Source: an uncultured delta proteobacterium
Lineage (GTDB): Bacteria; Desulfobacterota; Binatia; JACPRU01
Direction of reading: 5' to 3'
Assembly (NCBI GenBank): GCA_963745025.1
Contig: CAVUWD010000006.1
Coordinates: 480,001 to 544,000, forward strand
Length of the DNA stretch: 64,000 bases
The position numbers and the translations under genes are program-made. A model generated the notes under the pieces. That model did not search any database. It saw nothing but the letters and a program-made list of their open reading frames with translations, and had not been told where the DNA came from. Shown here in pieces: positions 43,600 to 62,226 of this stretch (the stretch's first letter is position 1; every line of letters starts with the position of its first letter).

Positions 43600-44720
43600 T
43601 CAGATCCCAGCCGCCCGCCGTCCGCAGGTCGCTTCGTGCACCATCCGATCCGCCATCGCTTCACCGAGCATCGTCGCGGTGAGGTGGGTGTTGACGCGCA
43701 CGATCTCCGGCATCACCGAGCAATCGACCACCCGCAAGCCATCGACGCCAAGCACACGACATGCATCGTCCACGACGGTACGCGGATCATTAGCGCGCCC
43801 CATGCGACAGGTTCCGGAAATGTGTCCGACTGAAATGGTGGCCTTGAGCAAGTGACGCTGCATGTTGCTCGCGTCGATGTCCTCGAGCGGCGTGCGGATG
43901 ATCGCGCCCCCAGCCGCGGGGCTCATGAGACGGGCGTCGGCCACGCCATCGCGCATGGAAGGCTGACGAGCGAGGGTCCTCACCCACTCGATCCCCCACG
44001 CGGTGCGCTCGATGTCAGAGGCATCGGACAACATCCGCTCGTCGATGATCGGGTCGAGCATCGGGTCACTGCTACGAAGACGTAGCTCGCCACGGGAGAA
44101 GCTCTCCATCAACACGACGCCGACGGCGACGCGTCGGTCCGTCGTGTCAAAGTGTGCCCGGTTCCATGCCATCATCAACAGATCGTTGATCCCCGCTAGT
44201 GCGAGCCCGCTCGTCAGCTGCACACAGGCGCTCGTGATGCGTCCGTCCGGCGGATGGCTTTGGACGTGGGGAGCCCGCTCGAACTCCACGAACAGCAGGG
44301 GGTGGTCGAGTAGATTCTGGCCGACCGGAAGATCGGCCTTCACAGGGATGGAGAGCGCGCGCAGATCGGCCGACGGGCCGATCCCCGAGCGCAACAGGAT
44401 CGCAGGTGAATGCACAGCCCCCGCGCAGAGGACGATCTCTCTGCCGCGGAGGTCGACCCAGCGATCGTCCACACGGACGTGCACGCCCAAGGCGCGCTGA
44501 CTATCGAACAACACGCGATCGACGTGGGCGTCGCCGACGATGCGCAGATTCGTTCGTCCGCGCGCGGGTTCGAGGTACGCGTCGTTGCTGGTGACGCGCA
44601 CGCCGTTGCGCACGTTCATGGCGTAGGGCGACACGCCACCGCCGCTTTCGGCATTGTGGTCGTCGCGCCATGCGACACCGAGCTCGAGTGCAGCCTCCGA
44701 CATCGGCACTGGTCTCGCGC
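43600..44720 (-). pseudogene. GMC (choline dehydrogenase-like) oxidoreductase lacking the N-terminal FAD-binding part
   Basis: CAGAVHSPAILLRSGIG, VGQNLLDHP, HISGTCRMG, GLRVVDCSVMP. No GxGxxG N-terminus. Confidence 0.85.
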
Positions 44721-45131
44721 GGGTTGAGCCGCGGGTTAACCTCGGCGTCCTCTTCCTCGCTGTTATGCTGCTTGATTTGGTCCTGTGAATCCTCACGGAT
44801 CGGGAGCGTGGCGCTCGCGAAACCGCGTGATCATCCGAGGATCTCGGCCTGGCCCCTGGCGTTCTGCGCGAGGATCTTCCCTTGGTCACGTGTGACGAAG
44901 GGAGATGTCTGCGGCCAGTAGTCTCCGGGCCAAGCCTGCGCCGCCGTACTAGCCGCAAGCGGCGATCCTGGCGACGACGCGCTCGCACGCCTCGAGGAGC
45001 GCTGCGGTGAACTCGCGCGGGCGATAGGCGCAGGCGGCATGATCGCCGTCGACCGGGTGAATCGTCGCTCCGCGGATCGACGCGGCCAGCTTTCGCTGAG
45101 CGGCGGCCGGTCTCGCATCCGCTGCCGCGAG

Positions 45132-45740
45132 CTACGCGAGCCCTTCTTCCTTCATTGCCTCGCGTACGTGAGGTCGAGCAGCGACCCGCTCGGAGTAAGC
45201 CTTCAGGTGCGGCCACGACGAGAGATCGATCTTCAGGTAGTTCGCCCAGAACGTCATCACGAACAGGTAGGCGTCGGCGACGCTGAACTGGCCGCCGAGC
45301 AGGAACGGACCGCTCTTCTCGAGATGCTGATCGACGAAAGCGAAGCGCTTCCCGATGGTGTCTTTCGCGATCGGCTTGTAATCTTCGGGCGTGGCCGGGT
45401 TGAACAGTGGACCGAAGCTCTTGTGCAACTCGGTCGAGATGAAGTTCAGCCACTCCTGGAGGCGAACCCGCTCGAGGGTCCCGGCCTGCGGGGCCAGTCC
45501 GGAACGCGGCGCCCGATCGGCCAGGTACTGCACGATGGCAGGACCTTCGGTCAGTAGCTCGCCATCGTCGAGCATGAGCGCCGGCACCTGGCCTTTCGGA
45601 TTGATGCCGGTGTAGTCGGCTCCGCCCTTGGTCTTCTTGCTCTTGAGGTCTACGGCTTCGAGCTCCGACGAGAGGTCCGCCTCCCGCAGGACGATGTGCG
45701 GGGACAGCGAGCAGGCGCCGGGCGAAAAATACAGCTTCAT
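45132..45740 (-). CDS. gstA: glutathione S-transferase (beta class)
   Basis: MKLYFSPGACSLSPHIVL, INPKGQVPAL, LTEGPAI. Confidence 0.93.
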   Translation of the reverse strand: MKLYFSPGACSLSPHIVLREADLSSELEAVDLKSKKTKGGADYTGINPKGQVPALMLDDGELLTEGPAIVQYLADRAPRSGLAPQAGTLERVRLQEWLNFISTELHKSFGPLFNPATPEDYKPIAKDTIGKRFAFVDQHLEKSGPFLLGGQFSVADAYLFVMTFWANYLKIDLSSWPHLKAYSERVAARPHVREAMKEEGLA

Positions 45741-45765
45741 GACCGATCCTCCTCTTCGGGTAGAT

Positions 45766-45801
45766 ACAGACCGTTCTGTGCGACGCTACAGGCCTGTCTG
45801 T
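45766..45801. promoter_or_regulatory. two TetR-type operator palindromes
   Basis: ACAGACCGTTCTGT and ACAGGCCTGTCTGT between divergent gst and tetR. Confidence 0.6.
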
Positions 45802-45829
45802 CTCAGTCAAGTGGGATCGTCACGATCCG

Positions 45830-46050
45830 ATGAAGAAAGCTGCGCCGCCCGTTCGCGAGCGGATTCTCGAATCCGCACACGAGTCGTTTTATCGAGAAGG
45901 CATTCGCGCCATCGGCGTCGACACCGTGATCGCCCGATCCGGTGTCGCGAAGATGAGCTTAGCTTCCTCTCCAAGGACGCTCGTGTGCGCCCACCTCGAC
46001 GCTTCGCCGTGCAGTACTGGAAATGGTGGAAACCGCGTCATGTCCGCCGT
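45830..46050 (+). pseudogene. TetR family regulator, disrupted
   Basis: RERILESA...FYREGIRAIGVDTVIARSGVAKMSL, then a deletion/frameshift (SKDALV). Confidence 0.8.
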
Positions 46051-46415
46051 GCTGAGCTTCCCTTACGTCGATTTTCCACAGGCCTTCGCTGCCGCCGCCT
46101 GACTTGCGCGCTCCACGCAAGTAAATCGCGGTAATGATATTACCTGCGATCTGGACCCTGGCGACTCGAGCTCTCTACCCCGCTCTAACCGCTACCTCCC
46201 GCTTGAACGGGTTCTCGCTCGAGGTGGTCGGCGAACCCAAGCACCTCGCGAACTTCGACCCGCAGAATCCGTACTTCCGCCGGCGGAGTTCGTTCGACGT
46301 CCCGAACACGCCGGCATCCTGCCGCGTCGGCGAGACCGGGCGCCTGCCCTCGCACAAGGTGCGCAAGTTGCCGTGAACGTCCGCGCTCCGCTGCGGAGTC
46401 CTGCGGCGGAGTCGC

Positions 46416-46901
46416 CTAACGCGACTTGCGCCGTGGCGCGATCGCGGCCGCCTCGGGACTTGCGACGGAGTGGATGTCGCCCGGCTGGCGCAGCATCTTG
46501 TCGACTTCGCCCAGGTGCTGCTCCTCCTCGAAGATCATCTTGCGCGCGTACTCCTCGAGCATCACCGACTCGCCCTGCACGAGGGAGAGCAGCTCGTGGT
46601 AGAGCGCGAGGCTCTTCGACTCGTGCTCGATCGACTCGCGCAGGATGTCGCCGATCTCGTGCTTGCGGGTCTCGAGCAGGGGCCCGATCGCGAGCGAGGG
46701 ATGGGCGCCGAGGTGCGTGACAAGCTCGCCCGCGGCCTGGGCGTGCTGGAGCGACGTCTGGGCCTCGCCGCGCAGCCAGGAGACGATCGGGATGCGTCCG
46801 AACCCGTACACCATGAGCGAGTAGTGCGTGTAGCGCACGACACCGGCGAGCTCCATCTCCATGATCTTGTTCAAGAGGTCGACGACCGTGGCGTCCTTCA
46901 T
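46416..46901 (-). CDS. bacterioferritin/ferritin-like protein
   Basis: ELAGVVRYTHY, E...H, EEEQHLGEV di-iron-type pattern. Confidence 0.85.
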   Translation of the reverse strand: MKDATVVDLLNKIMEMELAGVVRYTHYSLMVYGFGRIPIVSWLRGEAQTSLQHAQAAGELVTHLGAHPSLAIGPLLETRKHEIGDILRESIEHESKSLALYHELLSLVQGESVMLEEYARKMIFEEEQHLGEVDKMLRQPGDIHSVASPEAAAIAPRRKSR

Positions 46902-47022
46902 CCGAATCACCCTTTCTCTCTGCGGCCCAGAAGCATCGCACTTTCGTCGGCCTGGAGTCCACAAGCACAGCGAGCGAATGGCCCCGGTTACGTGCCGCTC
47001 TCCCGTCTCGACGACGGCGCGA

Positions 47023-47290
47023 CTAGAGTGCCCCCGCCACCACCTCTCCGTCGACGATCGTCGCTTCGACGGCCATCTCGCGGATGTCGTCCTGCGGGCA
47101 ATCGAGAAGGTCGCCGTCGAGGACGACGAGATCAGCGAGCTTTCCGGGCTCGATCGAGCCGAGCTCGTCCTCCATGAAGAGGGCATAGGCGGGGTTTCGC
47201 GTGAAGATTCGCAGCGCCTCCGCCCGGCTGATCTTCTCCCGCTCGCCGGCCCCGGCTCCCGTCAGCCCCGCCTTCCGTACGAGCGACTGC
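47023..47290 (-). pseudogene. amidohydrolase (Amidohydro_3) C-terminal fragment
   Basis: EALRIFTRNPAY...GSIEPGKLADLVVLD...TIVDGEVV. Confidence 0.8.
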
Positions 47291-47326
47291 CAGGCTCGGG
47301 TACGCGACTTGCGCGTAGCCGGAGGA

Positions 47327-47956
47327 TCACTCGGCGCCTCGCCAGGCCTCGTCGAAGAACCGCCACTCCCACTGCATCGCCCGCTGATAGCGGCCACGCT
47401 CACCGTCGGTGCCTTCGCCGTACATATCGAGGAGCGCTTCCATCCGGCGTACCAGGTCCGCGAACTCGGCCCCGGCGTACGTCTCGATCCACGGGGTGTA
47501 GGCGTGCTTCCCGCAATGCTCGTCCGCCAGCCGTCTGCCGATGAACCCGTAGAGCGCCATGCACGGCGTCATCGAGGCGATCAGCTCGCCCAGGCCCCCG
47601 GTTAGCGCGTTGGCGAGCAGGAAATCCGTGTACCCGCGCGCAGCCTCCATCGGGTCCACTTTCGCGAGATCGATGCCAAGCTCTTGGGAGACCGAGGCGT
47701 GCAGCTTCAGCTCCTCGAATACGCCCGCTTGAAGCTCGTGGAACATCCGCCGTCCAGCAGCGTCGGGAGCCCTTAGCACACCGGCCGCGAAACCTCTCGC
47801 GAACACGTCGAGAAAGAAGGCGTCCTGCGCGATGAACCGGATGTACCGCTCCCGCGAGAGCGTGCCGTCGCCCAGCCCGCGCACGAACGGATGCGCCAGG
47901 CACTCGAGCGCGATCCGCTCAGCGCCGTCCCAGAAGTCCCTGGACAGCCCCGCCAT
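47327..47956 (-). CDS. tenA: TenA (thiaminase II/aminopyrimidine aminohydrolase)
   Basis: HPFVRGLGDGTL, FIAQDAFFL, MTPCMALY, EWRFF. Downstream of thiD. Confidence 0.9.
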   Translation of the reverse strand: MAGLSRDFWDGAERIALECLAHPFVRGLGDGTLSRERYIRFIAQDAFFLDVFARGFAAGVLRAPDAAGRRMFHELQAGVFEELKLHASVSQELGIDLAKVDPMEAARGYTDFLLANALTGGLGELIASMTPCMALYGFIGRRLADEHCGKHAYTPWIETYAGAEFADLVRRMEALLDMYGEGTDGERGRYQRAMQWEWRFFDEAWRGAE

Positions 47957-47998
47957 CGCTACACGTTCCGCCGCGGCAGCACCGCCTCCATCCTGCCG

Positions 47999-48844
47999 CT
48001 ACCATTCGCTTTCCGACTCTCGCAGCGCGAACCGCCGCACCCACTCCTCGCAGTCGTCGCGCCGCAGGTAGAAGAAATGGTCCGTGGGGCCCGGCCCGTG
48101 GCCTATAGGCAGCCCGCCTCGAATAGCCTCAGTGACGTACGCCTTCGACAGCTTAACGGCCTCCAGCAGCGTCTTGCCGCGCGCCAGGTGAGTCGCGATC
48201 GCGGCCGAGTACGTGCACCCCGTGCCGTGTGTGTGCTTCGTCTCGATCCACTCGCCGTGCACCGCCTCGGCCCCGTCGCGGGTCACGAGCAGGTCGGCCG
48301 CCTTCTCCTCCAGCAGATGCCCGCCTTTGACAACGACGGCGGGTGCACCCTCGCGCAGCAGCTGCCTGCCAGCCTCCTCCGCCTCCTTCAGCGAACGCAC
48401 GCTGCGGCCCGTCAGCGCCTCGACCTCGTACACGTTCGGGGTGATCACCGTCGCCAGCGGGAACAGCCGCTCGCGCAACCCCTGCTTCGCGTCGTCCGCC
48501 AACAGCGAATAGCCGGTCGTCGACACCATCACTGGGTCGAGCACGTAGAACGGCGGTGCATACTTCCGCAGCCCTCGCTCCACGGCCTCGATGACCCGGG
48601 TGGACGCCAGCATACCCGTCTTCGCCGCCGCCACGGTCATGTCCGTGAACACCGCGTCGAACTGCGCCTCGATCATCTCGACCGAAAGCTCCTCCGTCGC
48701 CGTCACAGCCTGCGTGTTTTGCGCCGTTACCGCCGTCAGCACCGAGACCCCGAAGCCCCCGTTGGCCGAGATCGAGCGCAGGTCGGCCTGAATCCCGGCG
48801 CCGCCGCCGGAATCCGAGCCCGCTATCGTCGCAACGATTTTCAT
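47999..48844 (-). CDS. thiD: hydroxymethylpyrimidine/phosphomethylpyrimidine kinase
   Basis: TIAGSDSGGGAGIQADL, TAVTAQNT, THGTGCTYSAAI. Confidence 0.96.
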   Translation of the reverse strand: MKIVATIAGSDSGGGAGIQADLRSISANGGFGVSVLTAVTAQNTQAVTATEELSVEMIEAQFDAVFTDMTVAAAKTGMLASTRVIEAVERGLRKYAPPFYVLDPVMVSTTGYSLLADDAKQGLRERLFPLATVITPNVYEVEALTGRSVRSLKEAEEAGRQLLREGAPAVVVKGGHLLEEKAADLLVTRDGAEAVHGEWIETKHTHGTGCTYSAAIATHLARGKTLLEAVKLSKAYVTEAIRGGLPIGHGPGPTDHFFYLRRDDCEEWVRRFALRESESEW

Positions 48845-48914
48845 CGCACCTCTTCCTTCGAGCGCCGCGCCAGTGTCGGAACGAGAAAAGCCGCCCTCAG
48901 CTTAGCAAAGGCGA

Positions 48915-49012
48915 TACCCATCCCTTCGCTAGCATTGCCCAGCTCACGTGTTGAGGGGTCGCTCCGATGGGTCGGAGCCTCTCAGCCCAGCTTCTCAAGG
49001 TCCCCCTGGCAC
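48915..49012 (-). ncRNA. TPP riboswitch
   Basis: Minus strand GGGG...GGCTGAGA...GACCC...TGA.CTGG..AATGC.AGCG.AGGGA, about 70 nt upstream of thiD. Confidence 0.9.
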
Positions 49013-49249
49013 AGCGCCATTTTAGTACCAACCAGCCACAGCGTCACCAACCCTCTCCGAGGAACGCAGATTGCTGGGTGGTAGTGTGCGCCCCATGTCC
49101 CTACGCCAAGCGGCGCTATTTACCTTCTCCGTCAGTGTCCCTTCGATAGCGCGTTGCGCCACAACGGTGCGAAGCCGAGAGCCTCATTATGTAACCGCGC
49201 CCACCGGAGCAGGACAGCCTCTTCCGCAGCCGCTGCATCCACCAGCCAG

Positions 49250-49392
49250 GATTTTCTGCGACGGCGATTCCTTCGCGGCCGCGGCCAGCGGCTTCCCGCA
49301 TTCGCCGTAAAATCGTTCGCCCGGCTGATTATTGGCACCGCACGCGTCACAGGCGAGAGTCAGGCCTGAGCCGCACCCGGCACAGAATCTTG
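49250..49392 (-). pseudogene. double zinc-ribbon fragment of a cyclase-AAA gene
   Basis: RFCAGCGSGLTLACDACGANNQPGERFYGECGKPL...QKIL. Confidence 0.7.
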
Positions 49393-49485
49393 TCGACGAT
49401 AGGCGGGGGGCGACAATAGATCCATGAGCGGCGCTTCTTTGCTGCCGAGCCGCACGCGTGGTCCCGCCGCTGAAAACGCGCACGC

Positions 49486-51039
49486 TCACCGCAGCCGTTG
49501 CGCTGGCTGGCCGATCGCCATCAGGAACATCACGCTCTTGCCCGCAGCGTGCGGCGAGAAGAACTCCGTCACGTCGTCATCGAAAAAGGTCAGGCCGGTG
49601 GCGCCGATACCGAGCGCAAACGCGGCGAGGTACGTCCTGCCGCCGCGAATCGCCGCTTCAAGTTGCGCGGCACGATAGCCGCGGTTGCCGAAACGTTCGA
49701 GCGGCGGATGCAAGTCGACGAGCCAGTAAAGGTTCACTGCCGCGTCGGCAGCGAGATCCTGTCCGAGATCGAGATGGCCAGCCTCGCGGCGGAACTCACC
49801 GCCACGCAGCAACGCAAGTGCATCGCGCGCGCGATCGAACAGGTACGCACCTGGCGCCAGGGTGTCGACGGCGTTGACAATGAGATACAAATCAGTTGCG
49901 CTCGCATCGCGTGCAAGAACGTCTGCCGACAGATCGCGGCTCACGTATCGCAGGATGGTCGACAACACATCGAAGCCGATTGGTTCGTGGGTAAACTGTC
50001 TGGTTGAGCCACGCCGCAGAATCACCGACTCGATCGTCTCGTCGTGGCTGATGTCGGGAGCGAGCGGAACGATCTCGCCCGTCGTCGGAGAGGCACCGTG
50101 CTGCGGCAGCAGCAGCCCGCGCCAAGCGGCGGCCTCCGCGCCCGAGCCGAGCGAGGAAGCGGCGTGTGCCGCGCGGATCGCGGGGTAGTCCACCTCGCGG
50201 CTCGACAGCGGCAAGGTCTCCAGAGCAAGTGGGACGATTGCTGGCGCTGGGGCTGGCGGCGAGGGTTCGGCTCCGACTGCCACGAGGCTCAGTGTGACTT
50301 CGCGCGCCGAGTCGAGGGCGAGGAGTTGATTCAACTGATCGTCGGCGAAGCCCAATACCACATGGGCCGGCAAGTCCATTGCGGCGGCGACGGCGAGGAG
50401 ATTCGCCAGCAATGTGCCGTTATCCCAGAAGCAGTGGCGGTACGTGCGCGCCTGATACTTCCACGCGTTACGCCAGAAGGTGCTGGTGCAAGCGATCACC
50501 GCCGGCACGCTCGCCACAACGGTTTCACCACCTGTCGCCGCAACCACGGCGGCGCGATAATCGCCCGCTCGCAATTGTCGCAACGCGAAGTCGTGCGGGC
50601 TAAAGTGGTACACCCCGGCGGCCAACCCAGGCAGCGCACCGCAAATCAGGTAGAGATCGATGTGATGGAGATTGCCGGTACATGCCTGCGCGCGGAAGTA
50701 CACGTCGCTGCCGGGATGGCTGCGCCGGCGGAGCACACCGGCGGTGAAATACAAGAGGTGCCCGAGTCGCGCGAGATCGAGTCCCGCCCCGGCGCCCGCG
50801 ATTGTACCAGCATCGGCGATGGCGTGGATCGCGGGGCGTTCAAAGCTGGCAAAGTCGCGCGCCAGCGGGATAGGTTCCAGCGTCGGATACACCTTGAACG
50901 GGAGCGGCATGATCTCCCAATCCAAGCCGTGCGGCGAGCGACGCAGGCTGGCAATCGAATGCTTGGTCCCGTCGTGATACGCCCACATGGCCGCGTGATC
51001 GCGGTTGGTCATTGCCGGCAGCATAAACCGATTCGACAA
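49486..51039 (-). CDS. SagB/ThcOx family dehydrogenase (tandem nitroreductase domains)
   Basis: YHDGTKHS, RAQACTGNLH, RNAWKYQARTYRH, GATGLTFFDDDV. The start may be MTNRD at about 51012. Confidence 0.9.
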   Translation of the reverse strand: MSNRFMLPAMTNRDHAAMWAYHDGTKHSIASLRRSPHGLDWEIMPLPFKVYPTLEPIPLARDFASFERPAIHAIADAGTIAGAGAGLDLARLGHLLYFTAGVLRRRSHPGSDVYFRAQACTGNLHHIDLYLICGALPGLAAGVYHFSPHDFALRQLRAGDYRAAVVAATGGETVVASVPAVIACTSTFWRNAWKYQARTYRHCFWDNGTLLANLLAVAAAMDLPAHVVLGFADDQLNQLLALDSAREVTLSLVAVGAEPSPPAPAPAIVPLALETLPLSSREVDYPAIRAAHAASSLGSGAEAAAWRGLLLPQHGASPTTGEIVPLAPDISHDETIESVILRRGSTRQFTHEPIGFDVLSTILRYVSRDLSADVLARDASATDLYLIVNAVDTLAPGAYLFDRARDALALLRGGEFRREAGHLDLGQDLAADAAVNLYWLVDLHPPLERFGNRGYRAAQLEAAIRGGRTYLAAFALGIGATGLTFFDDDVTEFFSPHAAGKSVMFLMAIGQPAQRLR

Positions 51040-51318
51040 CGCGGGACAGGCGGCGACGTGAGGTCGCTAGATCTCGGGCCTCGCTTCCACGGGGAGCTTA
51101 CGGATCTCTTCGGTCAACCGCTCCGCCTCGCCGATCGTGTCGATGTACTCCTGAAACGCAGCGAGTGATGCGAGAGGCAGGCCGTCGGGGCCGGGCCGAA
51201 ACGAGAAGAACTCGGATATTCGCTTCCCTCCTCCGGGCACTATAGGCTGTGGCGATGATCGACTCGCCGCCTGCCCGGCCCCGAGCTGGGTTCGACTATC
51301 CGCGGAACCTCGTTGAGT

Positions 51319-51570
51319 TCAGTGAGTTCTTCCCCGACGCACTTCCCCGGTGCGGATGTCGAATGTCGCGCCGTGGTACGGACAGGTGACCTTGTGGCCT
51401 GACACTTCTCCCTCAGCGAGTGGGCCACCGCGGTGCGTGCAGGTGTTGTCGACCGCGAAGAACTTCCCGTCGACGTTGAAGAGGGCGATCTGCTTGCCCT
51501 TCGCCTCAACCAGTCGGCCCTGACCGGGCTCGAGCTCGTTTGTCTTCGCTACTCTCACAAAGTCAGCCAT
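51319..51570 (-). pseudogene. Rieske [2Fe-2S] ferredoxin, C-terminally truncated
   Basis: CTHRGGPL and CPYHGATFDIRTGEV. The usual GPP...L..Y tail is missing. Confidence 0.8.
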
Positions 51571-51587
51571 GGATCCTTTTCTCCCAT

Positions 51588-54296
51588 CTATGCTGTTTTC
51601 AGGAGCCGGGCTCGAGGGCGCCGAATCCTGGATCTGTGCTTCCGAGGCACCTTGGAACGCTTGCCGTTCGAGGGACGCAACGTTCTCCCTGGGACCGCCA
51701 CCTGGTCAAGAAACCCTTTCAGCGCCTCCGCGTGGGCCGACTTCCGCAAATGCTCCAAGGCGGCCACCTCGATTTGCCGGACGCGCTCCCGCGACACGCC
51801 GAGCTCCCTGCCCAGGTCCGCCAGCGTATGGTCGTCGCCCGAGCCGATGCCGTAGCGCCCGCGAAGCACGTAGGCCTCGCGCGAACCCAGCCCCGAGAGC
51901 GCGTGCTCTACGCGCTCGGCGAGTTCGCGACTCGTCACCGCGTCGACGGGATGGATCGCCCTCTCATCGGCGATGAAGTCTTCCAGCGTGGTCTCGCTGT
52001 CGGCGACCGGCACGTGCATTGAGATCGCGTCGTGAAGCTGTAGAAGCCTAGAGACTTCGGCGGGGGGCATCTGCGCTCTGCCGGCGAGGTCCTCGGGCGA
52101 AAGCGAAGTGCCGGCTTCGCTCAAGCCCTCCTGCGAGGTCCGCCGCAGTCGCGCCAGCTTCTCGGCGATGTGCATGGGAAGCCGAATGGTTCGGCCCTGG
52201 TCGGCGATCGCGCGCTGGATGTTCGAACGGATCCACCAGGTGGCGTAGGTCGAGAACCTGTATCCCTGATGGTGGTCAAACTTCTCCACCGCCCGCATCA
52301 GGCCAATGTTCCCCTCCTGGATGAGGTCGAGGAAGTCGAGGCCATGGCCGCGATACTTCTTCGCGATGGCCATGACGAGCCGCAGGTTGACCTTGACCAT
52401 CTCGTTCTTCGCGTGCTCCAGGCGGCGGACGGTGCCCTGCAACTCGCCCCACGTCCGCTTCATTTCCCCGAAAGGCAGGCCCGCCTGCTGCTCGATCCGA
52501 TGGATGTCTCGGCGTCCTCTGCTGCCTTTCTCTCGGAGGCTCGCTTCGGCTGCGACCACAAGCGCCCCGAGCTCGTCGCTCATCCGCTTCACGTGCGCGC
52601 GCGTGAGGCGCGTATCGGCAAGCACGATGGCCATCCGCTCCCAGAGAGCCTGAAGCTCCTCCTGGAGCTGCGCCGTGCGTTTCGAGGAGATCTTCCTGTC
52701 CGACAGCAGCTCTCGTCTTCGCGTGCTGCACTGCACTTCCAGCCTCGAGAAGTCGCCCAGGACGACACGGAGTTTGTCGTGAGCCTGCTGCTTGGCGTGC
52801 TCATCTTTGGGCACCGCGCTGACGACGATGTCCCATGAGGGCAGCTTTCCGTCATTCAGTCCGCAAGACAGGGCGGCGAGCTCTCTCGCAACGACTGCCG
52901 AGCGCAGGAGGAGCCGAAGCACGTCGCGTTCCGAGTCTTCAATCCTCCGGGCGAGCCCGAGTTCTTCCTCGGCGCTGGGGACCAGGAAACCGCCGGCGCT
53001 TCGCCGGTAAGCGGCCAAAGGATCGGAGCCACAGAAGTTGTCGATGCCGGAAACGGTCGTGCGCGGTCGCCCCTCCTTCTTCCCCGTCGTTGGCCGGGGC
53101 TTCCGCACGAGCACGGTCTCAGCCCAGGGAAACGGAAGGATGTGCTCGTCGGGAATGCGATCGCGCGCGCCCGGGATCTGCTTGAGCATCGCACGGTAAA
53201 TTAAGCCGCGCGTTCGCTTCTTGTAGCCGCCGAAGATCGGCTGAACCGTGCTGGGGCTCGTGGTGTAGCCCATGCGCCGCGCGGACTTCGCCACGCGGAT
53301 GGAGAGCTGGCGCTGCGTCGTATCCGGATGCTGCTCGAGCCAGGTCTTCGCCAGTGTTGCGATCGGTTGTGCGTCTACCCAGCACAAGTCGATCTGCTGG
53401 GTCTGCTTTTGCGCGGCCGCAGCCAGCTCGCCCTGAAGATCATCACCCTCCGGGAGGCTCTGCCGCAGCAAGGCTTCCATCTCGACGATCAGCGCATGTC
53501 GGACCTTCTTGAACCTGCCATCCACGGCCTTCTGGATCCGGGAAAGGCATAGCTCGATACCGCGTCGCCGCAGCTTCTCTTGAAGAATGACCGACAAGTG
53601 CCTCGATGACGGCTGGTGATTGCGGAGCTTCCACGCCCTTGCGAGGTCCACCAGGCGCTGCGCCGGCTCAAGGGTACGTTCCTGAAAGTAGGCTGCGATG
53701 TCCTTCCTGCTCTGCTGGTAGCGAGCGCGCGCTTCGTCTTCCGAGCCGATTCCGTGAGCCGAGAGAAAACCGAGCAGCACTTCGAGGACCTCACGTCGAG
53801 CGAGCGGTTGCTTCCCCGCCAGGATGTTCTGAAGCGGTTCGACCTTCAGATGCACGCCCCGACGGGAAAGCCGCACCGAGAGCAGCAGGGCGAGGCCGCG
53901 CCTGGAATGCGTGGGGTTGAAGAGCAGCCAGAGCTGGGCCAACGGGACGATCCGCTCGCTGGAGAGCCGCTCCGGCTGACGATCTTCCGGGGCGACCCAG
54001 AGGCCCGCCGTGCGGAGTGCCTTATCGATGTCGAGGTCAGTGCGTAGGCCGTTCGCGCGCAAGAGGACGTGCTGCATCGCACCCTGGACCTCGGGAGGGA
54101 CCGACGACACGCTTCCCGTCAGCTGCCGCTTGAGCGTTCGGACGTGGTAGTCGACGCCAATCGTTTCGAGATGCTCCTTGAGCTCGTGGGCAAGCGCTTC
54201 GCGATCGCAGCCCTTTTTCTGGAGAACGAGAGCTCCCATGGCGCGAAACAGCGCCCCTGGCATCCGCTCGAGCGAGCCGTGTGAGCCGTTCGTCAT
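51588..54296 (-). CDS. sigma-70 (RpoD-like) factor with N-terminal tandem repeats
   Basis: Region 1.2 DPLAAY...[11 protein letters not shown], region 2 [12 protein letters not shown]...[18 protein letters not shown]...[10 protein letters not shown], region 4 [20 protein letters not shown]. Confidence 0.92.
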
Positions 54297-54300
54297 GCAC

Positions 54301-55065
54301 CTACCCCCTCGCCTCTTCTACGGGCGCGGGGATGGCCTCGCGTCCGACCTCGGCGTCCCAGGCGGCGAGCCCTCCAGTGAGGCTGCGAGCGCGCGGGAAG
54401 CCGTAAGCCCGGAAGTAGGAGGCCTTGTCGAGGCTGCGGCGGCCGTCGTTGGAGTAGAAGACGAGCAGCGTGTTCAGGCGATCCAGCGTGCCTATCCACG
54501 TGAAGGCCTTGTCCGTCGACCCTGCGACGGCGATGGCGGCCGGTGTCTCGGTGCGCCAACCACGCGCGACGAGCAGTTGATGCGATCGTCGTTCGTCGTC
54601 GCACCCGACCCAACAACGGTCAATGAGTTCGGCGCGAGCGGCTCGAGGACGGGTCGGAAGCTCTCCTCTGCGTGCTCAGCGACGACCACGAAGCCGGAGG
54701 ACAGACCGCGGTGGGTAAGCGGGATGCCAGACAGCACCGGCGCAGCGATCGCAGAGCTCACGCCTGGAATCACGTCGAACGGGACGCCAACCTTGGCCAG
54801 TGCTAAGGCCTCCTCGCCGCCGCGACCGAGCACGAATGGGTCGCCGCCCTTAAGGCGAACGACCCGAAGGCCCCGCCGCGCGGCGCGAACCATCAATCGG
54901 TGGATCGTCTCCTGGTCTACGGACTTCCGGCCGGCACGCTTGCCGACAAAGAGCCGTCGCGCTTGTGGCGCCAGCTTCAGCACGTCCTTACCAACCAGCG
55001 CGCCGTAGAGGACCAGGTTGGCGTCCGCGAGGCGCCGCACCGCCTTGAGCGTGATTGAGATCGGG
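54301..55065 (-). pseudogene. cobA: uroporphyrinogen-III methyltransferase fragment fused to a rhodanese C-terminal fragment
   Basis: ITLKAVRRL, VVRLKGGDPFVLGRGGEE, IPGVSSAIAAP. After a frameshift: RGWRTETPAAI...TLDRL, then VFYSNDGRRS...SLTGGLAAW. Confidence 0.75.
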
Positions 55066-55232
55066 ATCGCCAGGGCGCCCAACGTCAATCACAGGAGACT
55101 CCGCGTTTCGGGGCGTAGCTGCGATAGCAAAGCGACGTAGCCATTTGGAACCTATGTAAAATCTGTTCGACGCTGGTGGCCATCGGGTCGTGCACGACCG
55201 ACCTGGTTGCGACCAATTAGAGCAAATAGGCG

Positions 55233-55261
55233 CTTGACTTTAATTTGTCAAGTATATACTT
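55233..55261. promoter_or_regulatory. palindromic operator / back-to-back -35 boxes
   Basis: CTTGAC-TTTAATTT-GTCAAG overlapping AAGTATATACTT, in an AT-rich divergent intergenic region. Confidence 0.6.
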
Positions 55262-55288
55262 TTCAAACTTGCGTAACTGGAGCAAGGT

Positions 55289-56008
55289 ATGTACGCTACC
55301 GCCATGACTTCCGACGTGCCCAGCTCCGCACGGGAGCGGGTTCTTCATGTCCTCAAGACGAAGGGGCCCCAGACCTCGGCGCAAATCGCCAAGCGTCTCG
55401 GCGTTACTACGATGGCTGTGCGCCAGCATCTCGCCGTCTTGGAGGGGGAGAAGCTCGCCGACTTCACGGACGAACGCCGCAAGGTCGGCCGGCCTGCTCG
55501 CCTCTGGCGGCTGACGCCGAAGGCTTATGACCGGTTTCCCGACTGCCACGCGGAGCTCGCGGTCGGCATGCTCCAGGCGATCCAGCGCGCCTTTGGTGAA
55601 GAGGGTCTCGAACGCCTGACCGAGGAGAGGACACGGCAACAGGCCGAGGCCTACCAGGCGCTGATGCCCGGCCCGAATGCCTCGCTCGAGGAGCGTGTGG
55701 CCACCCTTGCGCGCATCCGGCGCGAGGAAGGCTACATGGCCGAGTTGCGGCACAACCACGATGGAACGATCGAGCTCGTTCAGAACCACTGTTCCATCGC
55801 GAAGGCGGCGCGTCTCTGCCCGAAGCTGTGCGGCGGCGAGCTGTCGCTCTTTCGTACCGTCTTGGGTGACGACGTCTCCGTCGAGCGGACCGAGCACATC
55901 CTCTCGGGAGGCAGATGCTGCTCCTACTGCATCACCGGCCAAGCCAACGAACCGGCACTGGACGGAACCTCGCAGCCCTCCGTGCAGCGCCTGATCGGTC
56001 CCGCTTAG
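55289..56008 (+). CDS. SufR-like (HTH + Cys) transcriptional regulator
   Basis: LGVTTMAVRQHL, VGRPARLW, NHCSI...CPKLCGGEL...GRCCSY. Confidence 0.85.
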   Translation: MYATAMTSDVPSSARERVLHVLKTKGPQTSAQIAKRLGVTTMAVRQHLAVLEGEKLADFTDERRKVGRPARLWRLTPKAYDRFPDCHAELAVGMLQAIQRAFGEEGLERLTEERTRQQAEAYQALMPGPNASLEERVATLARIRREEGYMAELRHNHDGTIELVQNHCSIAKAARLCPKLCGGELSLFRTVLGDDVSVERTEHILSGGRCCSYCITGQANEPALDGTSQPSVQRLIGPA

Positions 56009-56078
56009 TGGCCGAATCCGGTCGCGCTGCGAAGGGACAGCGAAGGGAATACGTGTTCGAGGAGGAGAAGACGAACTG

Positions 56079-56544
56079 ATGAGCAACGCGCTACAGCCGG
56101 GAATCGATGAGGCACGCCTCGACGGGATCACGCGCACGCCGCTCCCCGGGTCGCGGAGAATCTACGCCACCGGAACGCTCTACCCGTTCCTTCGGGTTCC
56201 GATGCGCGAGATCCATCAAGCGCCAACCCAGGTGCACGGCGCGAGCAAGACGGCGACGATCAGCAATCCGCCGCTGGTCGCCTACGACTCGAGCGGGCCG
56301 TATACCGACCCCGAAGTGACGATCGACTTACGCAAGGGCCTTGCCCCACTCCGGGACACTTGGATCCGCGCTCGCGGCGACGTCGAGGAGCTGACCGCCG
56401 GCTCTCAGCTCTCGCGAGGCCATAACCTCGATGGCGTGCGCTTTCTGGCGTGGCGTCGCTGCGGAGGAGGCACTCGACAGGGGCCTCGAGGAGAAGTCGG
56501 CAGAGTTCCTTCAGGGTGGTGGTGAGCTCTATCGGAACGTGTGA
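56079..56544 (+). pseudogene. thiC: phosphomethylpyrimidine synthase with large internal deletion
   Basis: N-terminus PLPGSRRIY, LRVPMREI, YDSSGPYTDP, WIRARGDVE. C-terminus [17 protein letters not shown] is in another frame. Confidence 0.85.
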
Positions 56545-56558
56545 CCGCGGAATGTGCC

Positions 56559-57593
56559 ATGACGACGACCGAGCTTGTGCCGATCCATGAGAGGTTGACC
56601 GACAGACTCCAGCGGCCCCTGCGCGACCTTCGGATCTCGGTCACCGACCGCTGCAACTTCCGCTGCGTTTACTGCATGCCGAAGGAGGTCTTCGGCCGCG
56701 ACTATCCGTTCCTAGGGCGCGACAAGCTTCTCACGTTCGAGGAGACCGCCCGCCTGGCTCGGATCTTCGCATCCCTCGGCGTGCAGAAGGTCCGCATCAC
56801 CGGGGGAGAACCGTTGCTTCGCCGGGAGCTCGAAAGCCTGATCGCGATGCTGGCGCGCATCCCCGAGTTGGACCTCACGCTGACGACCAACGGGTCGCTC
56901 CTGACGGAGAAGGCGGCAGCGCTCAAGGAGTCTGGCCTTCGCCGGGTTACGGTGAGCCTCGACTCGCTGGACGATGACGTCTTCCGGGCGATGAACGACG
57001 TCGATTTCTCGGTCGACCGAGTTCTGGCCGGAATCGAGGTTGCCGCTCGGGTTGGTCTTACGCCCATCAAGATCAACGTGGTGGTCAAGCGCGGCGTAAA
57101 CAAGCACAGCATCCTGCCAATGGCCCGGTACTTCCGCGGGACGGGCCATATCCTGCGCTTCATCGAGTACATGGACGTCGGCCACTCGAACGGCTGGCGT
57201 CTCGATGATGTCGTCTCGGCCGCCGAGATCCTCTCGACGATCGATGCCGAGATGCCCATCGAGCCCGTCAACCCGAACTACCGTGGTGAAGTAGCAGGTC
57301 GATGGCGCTATCGCGACGGCAGCGGCGAGATTGGCATCATCGGATCGGTGACACGCCCCTTCTGCCGCGAATGCAGCCGCGCGAGGCTCTCAGCAGACGG
57401 ACAGCTCTTCACGTGCCTGTTTGTGACGGCGGGTCATGACCTCCGAGCCCTCCTCCGGGGCGGCGCTACCGATGCGGAGATCGCAGAGGGCATCTCCGGC
57501 GTGTGGCGGGCCCGGAGCGACCGCTATTCGGAGATTCGCTCCGCGGAAACCGTCATGCTTCCCAAGGTCGAGATGTCCTACGTAGGCGGCTAG
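56559..57593 (+). CDS. moaA: GTP 3',8-cyclase
   Basis: [33 protein letters not shown]-terminal MSYVGG. Confidence 0.96.
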
Positions 57594-57669
57594 AGATGCG
57601 TTTCTTCGGGCCAACAGAGGAGATGGCCGCGCGAAACGGTGCCGACCTGCGCGATCAAGGGGCTCCGTC

Positions 57670-58005
57670 ATGACGCTGCTGCGCGCCGGAGCGCTCTTCG
57701 TGGCTACGGCGATCGCCGACATTCCCGGGTGCTACCTTCCGTACCTGTGGCTTCGACAAGGACGGTCAGCGATTCTCTTGATTCCAGCCGCGCTCAGCCT
57801 CGCAGCGTTTGCCTGGCCTCTGACGCTCCATCCGACGGGCGCGTCCCGAACGTACGCCGCGTACGGCGGGGTCTACGTAACGGGCGCCGTGCTTTGGTTG
57901 TGGCTCGTAGAGAACAGGACACCATCGCGCGCGGATCTGATCGGCTCCGCGGTGGCCGTGCTTGGCATGGCAATCATTGTTCTCGGGCACAGGAGCTCAC
58001 CGTGA
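57670..58005 (+). CDS. ynfA: YnfA/UPF0060 membrane protein
   Basis: [24 protein letters not shown]. Confidence 0.88.
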
Positions 58006-58961
58006 ACTCCTCCGTGGCCACCCTGCCGGGCTCCGGTGCGGCCGTAACGCACGCGGCAGGCTCCATCGTCTCCCTGATCGCGAGTGCAACGGAGATCGTC
58101 TGTGCCCTTGGGCTCCGCGATCGCTTGGTGGGCATCTCACACGAGTGCGACTTCCCTGATGACGTGCGGGGCCTGCCGGTCTGCTCCGAGCCGCGCATCG
58201 ATCCCAGCCAGTCGGGCGGACAAATCGACCGCGCTGTGCGGGACCTGATCCGCGAGGGGACCAGCGTCTACCACGTGCGCACCGAGGTGCTCGAGAGGCT
58301 TCGCCCGGACCTCATCGTGACCCAGGACCAGTGCCACGTCTGCGCGGTGTCCCTCGCGGACGTGGAGCAGGCGTGCTCGACGCTGACGCACAACCCAGTT
58401 CGCATCTGCTCGCTGACCCCGCACACCCTCGCGGACATCTACTCCGATTTCGAGCGTGTCGGAATCGCCGCTGGGGTGCCCGAGCGCGGTCAAGCGCTTG
58501 CCTCCGAGCTCCGGGGCAGGCTCGATACGCTGAGAAGCGCGGCCGAGCTCGCACAAGGCCCCAAAGTGGCGTGCATAGAGTGGCTAGACCCGCCGATGGT
58601 GGCGGGTGGCTGGATGCCGGAACTCGTCCGGATCTTGGGTGGGACCCCAGTGCTCGTGACCTCGCCCGAGCGATTTCGGACAGTCGCTTGGGACGACATC
58701 GCGGCCGCCGACCCTGACGTCGCGGTCATCATGCCCTGCGGCTACCCCATCTCAAAGACGCTAGAGGAACTCGGCGACGCGCGCGTCGGGGCAACGCTGC
58801 GCCGGCTGCGCGCAACGCGCATTGGGCGCACGTTCGTCGCGGATGGAAACGCGTACTTCAACCGACCGGGCCCGCGAATCGCCGACAGCGCGGAGATCTT
58901 GGCCGCGCTCCTTCATCCCGACCGATTCTCTCTGCACGGTGGGGTCGAGCGCTGGTCGTAA
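58002..58961 (+). CDS. cobalamin/Fe-siderophore-type binding protein (BtuF-like, no signal peptide)
   Basis: [45 protein letters not shown]. Confidence 0.88.
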
Positions 58962-58972
58962 GGAGGACAGTA

Positions 58973-59323
58973 ATGGATGCCACCGCATTCGTGCAGGAAC
59001 TGGACTCGTTCAAGGCCGAGCGTCTTTCTCCGATCGTGGAAGCGGGGCAGACGTCGCTTCTGGGCGGTGCGCACGGCGACGCCAAGAAGATGTTGCAAGT
59101 GGCGCTGGCCAACGAGATCAGCGTGAGCGAGTTGGCGGCGGCGTGGATGCCGAGCACGCCGGAGGTGGACGTGAAGATTGCGTTCGCTCGACAAGCGGGG
59201 GACGAGGCCGGACACGTCCAGCTTGTGGCGCGGGAGACCGTGGCCAGGGTTCTCGAGATCGCCACCGCCGCCCGTGCCCAGGCCGCGGAACAGATGGGCA
59301 CCGCCTGCTTTCCAGGGTGCTGA
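58973..59323 (+). pseudogene. ferritin-like protein, probably internally deleted
   Basis: ALANEI...ARQAGDEAGH provides only one E/ExxH half of a four-helix bundle. Confidence 0.55.
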
Positions 59324-59359
59324 GCGACTTTGAGCAAGGCGTGCGCGCCACGGACTCGC

Positions 59360-59605
59360 ATGACAAGTCAGGTTCGACCCACCAGCTGCGAAGCGCTCCC
59401 GTTTCCCGAGAGCCTGTGCCACCGCTGCGCCGCGCCACCGAGATACGTCCGGACAGCAACCTCGGTATTCATCCGGTGTCCGCTTCTGGCCAACAAGTAT
59501 CCTCCTCAACCCATTCTCTCGTGCCCTTTGTTCCGACCCCCAGAAGGCGAGCAGGGCGACGACAGAAAACCCGCCGACAACGATTTCTCGGAGAAAGACG
59601 GATGA
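59360..59605 (+). CDS. small Cys-rich protein
   Basis: SLCHRC...SVFIRC...KYPPQPILSC. Confidence 0.6.
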   Translation: MTSQVRPTSCEALPFPESLCHRCAAPPRYVRTATSVFIRCPLLANKYPPQPILSCPLFRPPEGEQGDDRKPADNDFSEKDG

Positions 59606-59606
59606 G

Positions 59607-59951
59607 ATGAGCCTAGCCGACCAACGATGCATCCCATGCCGCGGTGCAGTTCCACCGATGGAAAGAAGCCGTGCCGAAGAGCTGCTGCGAGAGGTGGACG
59701 ATGGCTGGCGACTTAACGCGGATGGTCATCTCGACCGCACGTACTCTTTCGAGAATTTCGCCAAGGCCATGGCCTTCGCGAACAAAGTGGCCGACATCGC
59801 AGAAAGCGAGGGCCATCATCCAGATCTCCACATCGCATGGGGCAAGTGCACGGTGGAAATCTGGACGCACAAGATCCGCGGCTTGACCGAGAGTGACTTT
59901 TACTTCGCCGCCAAGGCGGACCGCGCATTCAAGACCACAGACAAGAGTTGA
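59607..59951 (+). CDS. phhB: pterin-4-alpha-carbinolamine dehydratase
   Basis: CIPCRG, AESEGHHPDL, WTHKIRGLTESDF..AAK. Confidence 0.93.
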   Translation: MSLADQRCIPCRGAVPPMERSRAEELLREVDDGWRLNADGHLDRTYSFENFAKAMAFANKVADIAESEGHHPDLHIAWGKCTVEIWTHKIRGLTESDFYFAAKADRAFKTTDKS

Positions 59952-60379
59952 CGCCACCGCTCGCGTTGCACGACCCAGTCCAGGGACTTCAGCACCGAGT
60001 CTCGCAGCCGTCGCTCGCTGATGGGCTGCTCTCCCGGCGGCACATCGAGGAACAGAATCTCGGCCTGGATGTCGGGCGCGAGGAGAAGCAGGTCCATGAT
60101 CTGCGTGACCCGCGCCCTGGTAAGGCCAAGCGCTCGAGCTAGAAGCCGCGATAGACCACGACCGTGAAGAGCGCTCGGAAAGAAGTGCGCGAGTCCCCAC
60201 GCTGCCTCGTCGCGGACCCACTGACCGAAGCCCTTGCCGCTCGTGGCCGTCTCCGCGTTGACTTCGGCTCGCGGCCGTTGTGTCGCTCCCGGTCCAGCAG
60301 AGTTCGAGTAGCCTCCGGGCCTGGTCGGCTCGATCACGATGACCGGCGGCGTGCTGCCGTATGGATCTTTGAAGCTCAT
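59900..60379 (-). pseudogene. chimeric ORF: element protein N-terminus plus LTRARVTQIMDLLLLAPDIQ fragment
   Basis: N-terminus similar to the 17084 ORF. C-terminus resembles a recombinase-island HTH protein. Junction near 60150. Confidence 0.6.
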
Positions 60380-60712
60380 GTGTGTGCTCCTCCTCTCTCG
60401 AGCACCTCGACGATGTGGTTGAGCTCACCGTTGAAGATGGATTCGACGAGCCATCCCTTGCCGACTGCCTGCTCGAACCAACGCCGCAGCAACATCGACA
60501 TGGTGATGACTGCAGCCCACTTCGCGCTGAGTAGCGCCTCACGCAGCCACCAGTTGCGGCGCTTCTTCGCGCGCCACCAGCTTCGGATTCGGCGCCCCTG
60601 TGCGCGCACGAATGTTGGAATGGCACGCAGCAGCGCGACGCCGCCTCTCCAGTGCCGTTCGATCGGGCGCCAAACGCGCTCGATCAGTCTTTGCAGCATC
60701 CTCACCTCCTTC
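60376..60712 (-). CDS. hypothetical protein, homolog of the 16879-17103 ORF; start approximate
   Basis: Sequence similarity and the same downstream neighbour. Confidence 0.55.
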
Positions 60713-60819
60713 ATCTCTTCAGGAGCTCGGCCTTCACGAAGACGAACGGGTCTCGGATCTCCCACGCCGGCGCCTCGTCGTATCCGGGCAGGCACCTGAT
60801 CGCGGTCACCGTCAGCGAC

Positions 60820-61323
60820 TCACAGAACGCGGCCGCCTCGGTCTTGCTCCCAGTCGTTCGTCTCGCAGGACTGGTACACGAAACAACGGATCGCTTTGAG
60901 GACGATCACCGGATCGGGCGATCCCGGCAGCATCTTGAAGCTGTATTCCGGCACTGGCTCCTCTTCGTCGTAACGGTAGTTGACGCTCCGGCGGTTCTCG
61001 GCGATGAGCATTCGCCCGACGTCGTCCCGGGTGAGCTCGTTCAGCTCTCGCTCCTTCCTCGGATCGTCCCAGTACCAGCGAAGCGGCCCATAGGGACGCA
61101 CCAGGATGAGCCCCGCGGTCACGAGCGCGTTGATATGCGTCGCTCCGACCATGAAGGCCGGGACGGGCGCGGCCTGGCGCGATTCCTTGATCTTCTCGGC
61201 GAACAGCTCCTCGGCGACTTCCTTAGTTGACGCGGTGAGCCGGCGACGCACGCCGTGGGCGTCGAGGTAGTCAACCTGCCAAACGTCCTGCTTCGCTCGC
61301 TTGCGCTTACGGATGCTCGCCAT
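60820..61323 (-). pseudogene. chimera: integrase N-terminus fused to a phage/ICE hypothetical protein
   Basis: MASIRKRK...WQVDYLDAHGVRRR, then AFMVGATHINALV...ENRRSVNYRY...YQSCE. Confidence 0.65.
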
Positions 61324-62025: not shown

Positions 62026-62226
62026 TGGATCGACGAGCGCTGGCTTGTTTCGGGTGTGCTCCGCCACGCGATGGACGGCGATCACGGCCACGATCGCCAG
62101 GTAGAAGCCGTAGGCGCTGACCAGGACAGGTAGCGGCCAAAACCCGGCGGCCGTGCGCTTGTGAGCGCGCGCGTGGAAGAGTTGCACTCGGCGGCTGTGC
62201 GATCTACTGTCACCGCCGTCACCACG

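Follow-up and report, generated by a model that had tools for sequence, protein, structure and literature searches.

Region 1.1, at the N-terminus of RpoD, is small, acidic and autoinhibitory. Among other sigma factors, extracytoplasmic function (ECF) factors with on-board sensor extensions are known, and in WhiB7 a WhiB domain bound to sigma region 4 is combined with a DNA-binding AT-hook. Helix-turn-helix (HTH) domains of the lambda-repressor/XRE type occur in tandem arrays, as in CUT repeats and POU proteins, and suf operons for iron-sulfur (Fe-S) cluster assembly are controlled by SufR in Actinobacteria and Cyanobacteria. We know of no RpoD- or RpoH-type sigma factor with a large folded N-terminal accessory domain. 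Here, we describe a gene that appears to encode one, located at positions 51588-54296 (minus strand) of a 64,000-nucleotide stretch of contig CAVUWD010000006.1 from an uncultured delta proteobacterium (hereafter the window, to which all coordinates refer). In its 902-aa product, here called module-sigma, a basic module of four repeats is followed by a linker, an RpoD-like sigma factor and a basic tail.

The open reading frame (ORF) begins with ATG, has a conserved GGAG-type ribosome-binding site (RBS) and shares its first codons with most of 48 aligned upstream regions. All parts of the protein are encoded on the minus strand. The module (about 45 kDa) comprises repeat 1 (aa 10-108, 53973-54269), repeat 2 (aa 109-207, 53676-53972), repeat 3 (aa 208-304, 53385-53675) and repeat 4 (aa 305-400, 53097-53384), after which comes a Pro/Arg/Lys-rich linker (aa 401-423, 53028-53096, net charge +3) that is variable in family alignment A3 and over which the per-residue confidence drops at the end of the structure model. 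Sigma region 1.2 and the non-conserved region (NCR) (aa 424-627, 52416-53027) align to residues 124-375 of the RpoD of the same genome. Region 2 (aa 633-703, 52188-52400) matches PF04542 (77.2 bits, E value 8.5e-22, above cut-off), region 3 (aa 712-786, 51939-52163) matches PF04539 (33.6 bits against a cut-off of 25.3, E value 4.2e-8) and region 4 (aa 799-852, 51741-51902) matches PF04545 (55 bits, E value 5.8e-15, above cut-off). The protein ends in a very basic tail (aa 861-902, 51591-51716, net charge +13, isoelectric point (pI) 12), and similar tails are found in some homologues. No Pfam family matches residues 1-630, and PF00140 (region 1.2) is unmatched at E≤0.01; it is matched in 13 of 67 family members. 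Regions 2, 3 and 4 place the protein in groups 1-3 of the sigma-70 family, and the continuous BLASTP alignment to the RpoD of the same genome, through region 1.2 and then the NCR, identifies it as RpoD-like (group 1/2). An ECF (group 4) identity was ruled out by the presence of regions 3 and 1.2.

The same genome carries a canonical RpoD on another contig (C20; 615 aa, TIGR02393 390.7 bits against a cut-off of 354), the N-terminus of which is acidic by reading of the sequence; module-sigma is therefore not the housekeeping sigma factor. Residues 424-863 align with this RpoD from region 1.2 to the end (BLASTP: 31% identity, 236 bits). RpoD models rank first among the NCBIfam matches of module-sigma, all of them under their equivalog cut-offs (NF004208, 349.8 bits against 555; TIGR02393, 266.4 bits against 354 by hmmscan of the protein and 270 in the genome search), and its N-terminal 400 aa contain no acidic region 1.1 and are basic (net charge +21, pI 10.2). 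The -35 recognition helix reads RERVRQIE in module-sigma and RERIRQIE in the RpoD, and the region 2.4 stretch reads WWIRSNIQR as against WWIRQSVSR. Judged on these comparisons, module-sigma is an additional, accessory RpoD-like sigma factor and not the primary one.

Homology among the four repeats emerged at the level of profiles. BLASTP of the N-terminus (aa 1-460) against itself found no repeat. The five best offsets in an ungapped diagonal scan were 99, 97, 196, 100 and 199 (scores 74, 47, 40, 31 and 26), where the maxima of 200 shuffles had a mean of 23.5, a standard deviation of 5.2 and a top value of 40; in this single-sequence scan, repeats 2-4 are clearly above chance and repeat 1 is not. 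When the family alignment was cut into the four units, hhalign found all six repeat pairs significant (probability 93.9-99.4%, E values 1.6e-7 to 1.2e-21), including repeat 1 against repeats 2, 3 and 4 (98.3%, 98.5% and 93.9%), and 20 single repeats from five proteins aligned in one register. Profile comparison thus indicates that the N-terminal 400 aa are four homologous repeats of about 98 aa. The sequence-only reading of the window had proposed an intact 902-aa ORF with an RpoD-like C-terminal part (regions 1.2, NCR, 2, 3 and 4) behind four repeats at a spacing of about 99 aa; Pfam and BLASTP agree with the first part of this description and the profile alignments with the second. The third helix of repeat 1 is the best-conserved stretch of the family, with R57 and G61 invariant, and repeat 4 is the most basic repeat (+9), with a conserved basic motif at its end that closes the module.

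The module is shared by proteins of many uncultured bacteria. A word-seeded search with residues 1-420 returned 95 proteins of 496-1579 aa, 84 of which have sigma-70 regions 2 and 4 behind the same N-terminal module and two of which have WhiB; the remaining nine have neither, one of them showing region 1.2 only and eight no Pfam family. An exhaustive phmmer search of 1.84 billion representatives (50% identity clusters) gave 171 matches at E≤0.001, 138 at 1e-10 and 78 at 1e-30, among them stand-alone proteins of about 390-500 aa. We assembled 67 full-module members (the query, 62 representatives spanning most of the module and four proteins from the word-seeded search), in which Pfam finds regions 2 and 4 in 23, region 3 in 21, region 1.2 in 13 and WhiB in one, the rest having no Pfam family. 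The sigma partners fall into three classes: RpoD-like with an NCR (this gene and P0132), SigB/group-2-like without an NCR (P0038) and RpoH-like (P0108 and the cultured Polyangium fumosum; 234.9 bits against a sigma-32 cut-off of 241). The module itself has no match in Pfam, PADLOC or PHROGs. To judge from these searches, it represents a conserved, undescribed family whose fusion to sigma factors is recurrent and no one-off. The sequence-only reading had allowed for a chance deletion fusion, which the recurrence of the fusion in 84 of the 95 proteins does not bear out.

Several members have other C-termini. WhiB fusions are P0073 and P0075, P0052 has a Cys- and His-rich tail without a family match, and P0076 and P0080 carry an unrelated tail of about 100 aa, also without a family match. 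Thirteen stand-alone modules (P0154, P0116, P0142, P0107, P0110, P0111, P0155, P0104, P0114, P0117, P0089, P0092 and P0115) share a conserved helical C-terminal motif of about 45 aa that does not significantly resemble the repeat or any of sigma regions 1.2, 2 and 4; its interpretation as a relic of region 1.2 was rejected (hhalign, only 1.1%). A search for single-repeat ancestors matched 29 of 1135 short candidates, none of them with a Pfam label, and the five that were inspected were fragments of repeat 1 or repeat 4.

In this lineage, the gene is clearly accessory. The module is single-copy in this genome, and a search with the module alone found it in none of 40 relatives, which comprised a same-genus genome (82% complete), six genomes from the same family and 33 from the class. 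The same-genus genome has flanks 92-95% identical to those of the window and no close counterpart for positions 51340-60139. A pattern scan with one genome per species gave 29 loci, with record titles naming Myxococcales, Polyangium, Acidobacteriota, Acidimicrobiales, Conexibacteraceae, Woeseia, Lysobacterales, Planctomycetales and a 'Betaproteobacteria' metagenome-assembled genome (MAG). Because the labels of MAGs are assigned by their submitters and several of the loci have SufB proteins 86-94% identical to one another, we do not use these names to claim cross-phylum transfer.

Gene context was the most informative result: in close relatives, the gene is placed within a suf operon or next to one. 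The eight genes of L005 (module identity 82%), all on the same strand, encode a rhodanese, SufB, SufC, SufD, SufS, SufT (the long form; TIGR03406 223 bits, above cut-off), module-sigma and an ApbC-type Mrp, and this order is repeated in L007, L009, L073, L075, L080, L081 and L051. L008 has SufT, sigma, Rieske and Mrp genes. The layout of the window, with a divergent SufR-like gene, the sigma gene and then a Rieske gene, is shared by L006, L056 and L062, and the divergent SufR-like gene is kept on the short contig of L058, a 96%-identical strain. In L015, an ArsR/SufR-like gene is followed by a stand-alone module paralogue, the sigma fusion, an intact Rieske gene and SufT-ApbC. In many loci, a small intact rhodanese gene ends about 30-40 nt before the conserved GGAG and ATG of the sigma gene, a gap that suggests co-transcription of the two genes.

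Fe-S genes were counted by tblastn in 101 loci other than the window, of which 77 have a flank of 1.5 kb or more on one side; these loci are not independent of one another. One or more Fe-S genes occurred in 32/42 loci at a module identity of at least 60% and in 5/12 at 46-59%. Where loci of at least 60% identity also had at least 6 kb upstream, the figure was 11/13, and in these 13 loci SufB, SufC, SufD, SufS, SufT and Mrp, counted gene by gene, were each present in ten. The ten close loci without Fe-S genes are mostly of the short-sigma P0038 type. With SufR-like and Rieske genes also near it in the window, the gene is suf-associated, and the possible redox or Fe-S link raised by the sequence-only reading is strongly borne out by comparative gene context.

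Two observations on these loci stand apart. The tandem members of L015 (5575-11088, an Acidobacteriota contig) are a stand-alone module of 519 aa, a 115-aa ORF with weak zinc-finger matches and a fusion of 1037 aa. In L118 and L119 (about 8001-8108), only the first 36 module codons lie between SufT and Mrp in an otherwise complete suf operon, which may be a scar of gene loss.

The module is under purifying selection and is constrained like the sigma core: against five homologues, dN/dS (the ratio of nonsynonymous to synonymous substitution rates) is 0.18-0.24 for the module, 0.19-0.31 for regions 2-4 and 0.31-0.45 for the linker, region 1.2 and NCR. Against the 96%-identical strain the value is 0.60, on very few changes. 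Strain X2, represented by contigs of an independent sediment run that span 51339-54375, shows 1-6 substitutions in each piece and is free of indels. In the more divergent strain X1, all ten gaps lie at position 54295 or beyond, that is, in the first codon or upstream, and the rest of the ORF that it covers has no indel. These data uphold the earlier suggestion that the intact ORF reflects selection. Runs containing this stretch come from 15 studies of sediment, soil, bog and wetland.

AlphaFold2 returned a model of aa 1-405 from a 77-row alignment (predicted local distance difference test (pLDDT) 94.7, predicted template modelling score (pTM) 0.84), and repeat 2 folded singly gave a pLDDT of 97.4 and a pTM of 0.88; repeat 3 is delimited by hhalign and this four-repeat model. 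The predicted order of elements in a repeat is a strand, a helix of 10-14 aa, a helix of 14 aa, a helix of 8 aa, a strand, a helix of 12 aa and one or two more helices, and the top structural neighbours are C-controller proteins, TP901-1 CI, SinR, EspR and the SATB1 CUT domain. We take the repeat to be a new domain family that is, in fold, probably nearest to the lambda-repressor-like HTH, with an elongated helix 2 and a longer loop. Such HTH-like similarity is too weak to carry a functional claim alone. Over 77 sequences, the module charge has a median of +19 (range -6 to +43), and the value of +21 in module-sigma is the opposite of that of the acidic region 1.1. Within the protein, basic charge is highest in repeat 4 and in the C-terminal tail, the sigma core being neutral. 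Basic motifs are conserved in repeats 1 and 4, no cysteine is conserved in the module, and its best-conserved residues hardly vary from one class of sigma fusion to another. In a PDB profile search, a weak local match to DEPTOR DEP domains (31 residues, whole-sequence E value 0.0074, per-domain E value about 0.9) was judged not significant. An ESM Atlas look-up gave no score of at least 0.9.

We tentatively favour, at somewhat short of an even chance, the explanation that module-sigma is an accessory, Fe-S-linked alternative sigma factor with a built-in targeting module, for which nucleic-acid binding is predicted. The sigma gene would belong to an operon under SufR-type control and be expressed together with Fe-S assembly genes at times of Fe-S cluster shortage, with expression driven from the divergent SufR-type promoter region. 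The sigma part would bring core RNA polymerase to promoters whose -35 element is housekeeping-like and whose -10 element is altered. Near these promoters, the basic four-repeat module would bind nucleic acid and so provide the sigma factor with its own means of targeting or activation, comparable to the AT-hook of sigma-bound WhiB7. We prefer nucleic-acid binding because every fusion partner of the module is a component of the polymerase holoenzyme, because the nearest fold class is DNA-binding and because the charge fits; the +21 is compatible with the putative multi-site DNA binding that the sequence-only reading proposed. WhiB7 further provides a precedent for a DNA-contacting add-on tethered through sigma.

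Several results weigh against this explanation. The HTH geometry is not canonical, since the predicted helix 2 is about twice as long as in a canonical HTH and helix 3 comes after a six-residue loop. Foldseek found no match to the model at E≤0.001, and the VIA Z values were below 8 throughout, a range that the tool itself describes as possibly a common helical arrangement. None of the four single repeats matched an HTH Pfam family even at E≤10, a PDB profile search with the pooled repeats gave six matches with no XRE protein among them, and hhalign of the repeats against an HTH_3 profile made from 12 of this genome's XRE proteins gave probabilities of 0.3-2.5%, where the positive controls, sigma regions 4 and 3, reached 89.2% and 50.1%. 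No sequence test (Pfam, PDB profiles or hhalign) places the module in the HTH_3/XRE family. The sequence-only reading had seen in the repeats an XRE/Cro HTH with an insertion, a proposal that is weakly supported. No candidate DNA target was found, and the near-invariance of residues would suit a universal ligand, such as polymerase or a conserved protein, no less than species-specific operators. The Fe-S association also fades with distance, at least one Fe-S gene occurring in 3/23 loci below 46% module identity, the Polyangium type included. The module-sigma gene of this genome is detached from the housekeeping sufBCDS-sufT operon, which is found on contig C16 and has no module, Mrp, Rieske or SufR-like gene beside it. 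As to expression, one RNA library (X17) gave two contigs in the ORF (53025-53190 with no differences and 54100-54294 with one), a weak hint because RNA libraries may hold DNA; runs of this kind hold 0.05-0.07 of the stretch, so that uncovered parts of the gene are uninformative.

The main alternative is that the module binds protein and serves as a regulator or sensor, in effect an anti-sigma factor or adaptor carried by the sigma factor itself. By docking on the sigma domains, the polymerase or one of the Fe-S carriers encoded in adjacent genes (SufT, ApbC, Rieske or rhodanese), it would make sigma activity depend on Fe-S status and not on DNA binding by the module. Its conserved neighbourhood with Fe-S carriers and its fusion to WhiB, itself a family of Fe-S sensors, would both fit this role, and near-invariant key residues across partners suggest a universal protein ligand. 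The rigid packing of the four repeats (pTM 0.84) is scaffold-like, the module has no sequence link to DNA-binding families, and sensor extensions on the sigma factor itself are known from the ECF group, OrbS being an example. However, the module cannot itself hold a cluster because it has no conserved cysteine, a net charge near +20 is not usual in domains of the anti-sigma type, and stand-alone modules exist that have no sigma to gate. The scarcity of Fe-S neighbours among the distant loci, with the RpoH-type Polyangium among them, counts against a sensor as well, and we regard such a role as unlikely, if still worth serious attention.

The charge data bear on another, more improbable explanation, in which the module is a non-specific tether to nucleic acid or the nucleoid, or an RNA binder, and raises the local concentration of sigma without conferring promoter specificity. 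The high positive charge of the module and C-terminal tail and the conserved basic motifs of repeats 1 and 4 are what a tether would show, as is the lack of conserved operator-like repeats upstream. Yet a rigid, conserved fold of four domains with a dN/dS of about 0.2 is more elaborate than known charge-based tethers, and with a family range of -6 to +43, charge alone is not conserved.

It is very improbable that module-sigma is a defence sigma factor akin to MzaA, a component of the MZA anti-phage system, or that it belongs in some other way to a mobile element. MzaA models do match the protein (NCBIfam 290.1 bits; PADLOC 191.2 bits), giving its best non-RpoD NCBIfam match, and MzaA resembles it in being a long sigma-70 family protein with extra N-terminal sequence. 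The gene is accessory, with the module in 0/40 relatives and the stretch lacking a close counterpart in the same-genus genome, and record titles put its relatives in several phyla. However, the matches cover the generic sigma part only (aa 552-866 and 624-866), and the NCBIfam score, over positions 441-717 of a 726-position profile, is far under the cut-off of 800, so that we do not take module-sigma for MzaA. The module matches nothing in PADLOC or PHROGs, and the neighbours identified are Fe-S, cofactor and thiamine genes (MzaB-E were not searched for), a context of Fe-S assembly in place of defence.

The neighbours of the gene in the window are partly broken. Directly downstream, a Rieske [2Fe-2S] gene (51319-51570, minus strand, 83 aa, PF00355 positions 3-78 of 88) has its C-terminus cut short; a Rieske gene also follows the homologous sigma gene in L006, L008, L015 and further loci. 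Over the 3′ end of the ORF lies a 126-bp repeat (51214-51339), present in five copies at 99% in the same-genus genome G001 and in one copy in this genome (G000), and the ORF ends 20 nt inside this element. The strain X2 contig leaves the window exactly at 51339, and its loose end, read against the L006 Rieske gene, continues into a normal Rieske C-terminus. A second 126-bp element (49262-49388) has several copies at about 85-91% in G001, and the two elements look like small mobile repeats resembling miniature inverted-repeat transposable elements. Between them, a minus-strand gene (49486-51039) encodes a 517-aa protein with a nitroreductase-family domain, 95% identical to a same-genus gene that has the other orientation relative to thiD.

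On the upstream side, the C-terminal half of a rhodanese domain (54304-54675, minus strand, PF00581 positions 47-101 of 102) is preceded in frame by sequence read by eye as cobA-like. A broken cobA-like (TP_methylase) frame follows (54492-55088, minus strand, PF00590 positions 14-156 of 212), the cobA-like reading being spread over several frames (54304-55239); the frames read as its continuation have no cobA family match, and strains X1 and X2 differ by indels in this region. The whole of 54304-55239 (minus strand) looks like a chimeric pseudogene left by deletion. A divergent AT-richer intergenic region (55089-55288) contains a promoter-like site towards the sigma operon (minus strand, 55266-55237) and a palindrome (about 55233-55253; 6-bp arms, 9-nt spacer) that overlaps the promoter-like hexamers and may be an operator; the palindrome was not found beyond this genome and the 96%-identical strain L058. 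Aligned upstream regions share the RBS and no promoter or operator motif, and no direct or inverted repeats of at least 30 nt occur in 44000-64000. The SufR-like regulator itself (55289-56008, plus strand, 239 aa) matches TIGR02702 over positions 2-208 of 208 at 121.9 bits, below the cut-off of 178.8, and copies 73-95% identical occupy the same position in L006, L033, L056, L058 and L062. Further on, a 148-aa ORF (56079-56522, plus strand) holds only a ThiC-associated N-terminal domain, and is for that reason taken as a ThiC fragment; it adjoins an intact MoaA-like gene.

The sequence-only reading had described both neighbours as decayed, and the breakage of the rhodanese half, the cobA-like frame and the Rieske gene is real, although one of the breaks coincides with the edge of the 126-bp repeat. 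Overall, the locus looks like a rearranged remnant of a suf-linked arrangement in which the sigma gene was kept intact. That the gene is itself a chance deletion fusion or is decaying among the cobA-like, rhodanese, ThiC and Rieske fragments around it is refuted for practical purposes by the same architecture in 84/95 relatives, a dN/dS of about 0.2, two independent strains of which one has no ORF indels and the other has them only at the first codon, and the conserved RBS and start.

Literature searches, judged by titles and abstract openings, returned nothing on the module-sigma architecture or on a sigma gene inside suf operons. To that extent, a portable N-terminal domain family on a sigma-70 family factor and its genomic association both appear to be new. 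The module looks like a general add-on for polymerase-associated regulators because it is shared with WhiB fusions and stand-alone proteins. A broader proposal, which is doubtful although we take it seriously, is that the module is a portable promoter- or polymerase-targeting device of a new fold family, used on RpoD-, SigB- and RpoH-type sigma factors and on WhiB, and that in the core clade the sigma factor is part of the SUF operon, such that Fe-S shortage would switch on the assembly machinery together with a dedicated holoenzyme; this, if true, would be an unrecognised tier of Fe-S homeostasis control. The position of the gene in suf operons suggests that promoter selection is directly coupled to the supply of Fe-S clusters. 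Bench testing is possible because cultured Polyangium species (P. fumosum DSM 14668 and P. jinanense SDU13) carry the RpoH-type version.

Compared with RpoD-like group 1/2 sigma-70 factors, module-sigma has regions 1.2, NCR, 2, 3 and 4 in collinear order and a nearly identical -35 helix, but a 400-aa basic module replaces the acidic region 1.1, and it further differs in its basic C-terminal tail, its region 2.4 residues and its sub-cut-off RpoD scores. ECF sigma factors with fused sensor extensions, such as OrbS, are likewise sigma factors with a regulatory domain of their own, in one case iron-linked; as far as titles and abstract openings describe them, they belong to group 4 and have C-terminal extensions, whereas module-sigma is RpoD-like with an N-terminal module lacking conserved cysteines. 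The SufR-controlled suf operons of Actinobacteria and Cyanobacteria are reminiscent of the present loci in their divergent SufR-like regulator and, in the relatives, the sufBCDS-sufT order, but their titles and abstract openings mention no sigma gene in the operon, where here one lies between sufT/rhodanese and Rieske/apbC. The predicted repeats have a helix order similar to that of lambda-repressor/XRE HTH domains, and CUT proteins also array several such domains in one chain. Finally, WhiB7-type regulators offer an analogy in which a DNA-contacting add-on would be held at the polymerase through sigma or a sigma-binding domain, and some members of the family are themselves module-WhiB fusions; in WhiB7, however, the add-on is a short AT-hook, whereas here it is a folded 45-kDa N-terminal array of four repeats, with putative DNA binding, fused to sigma itself.

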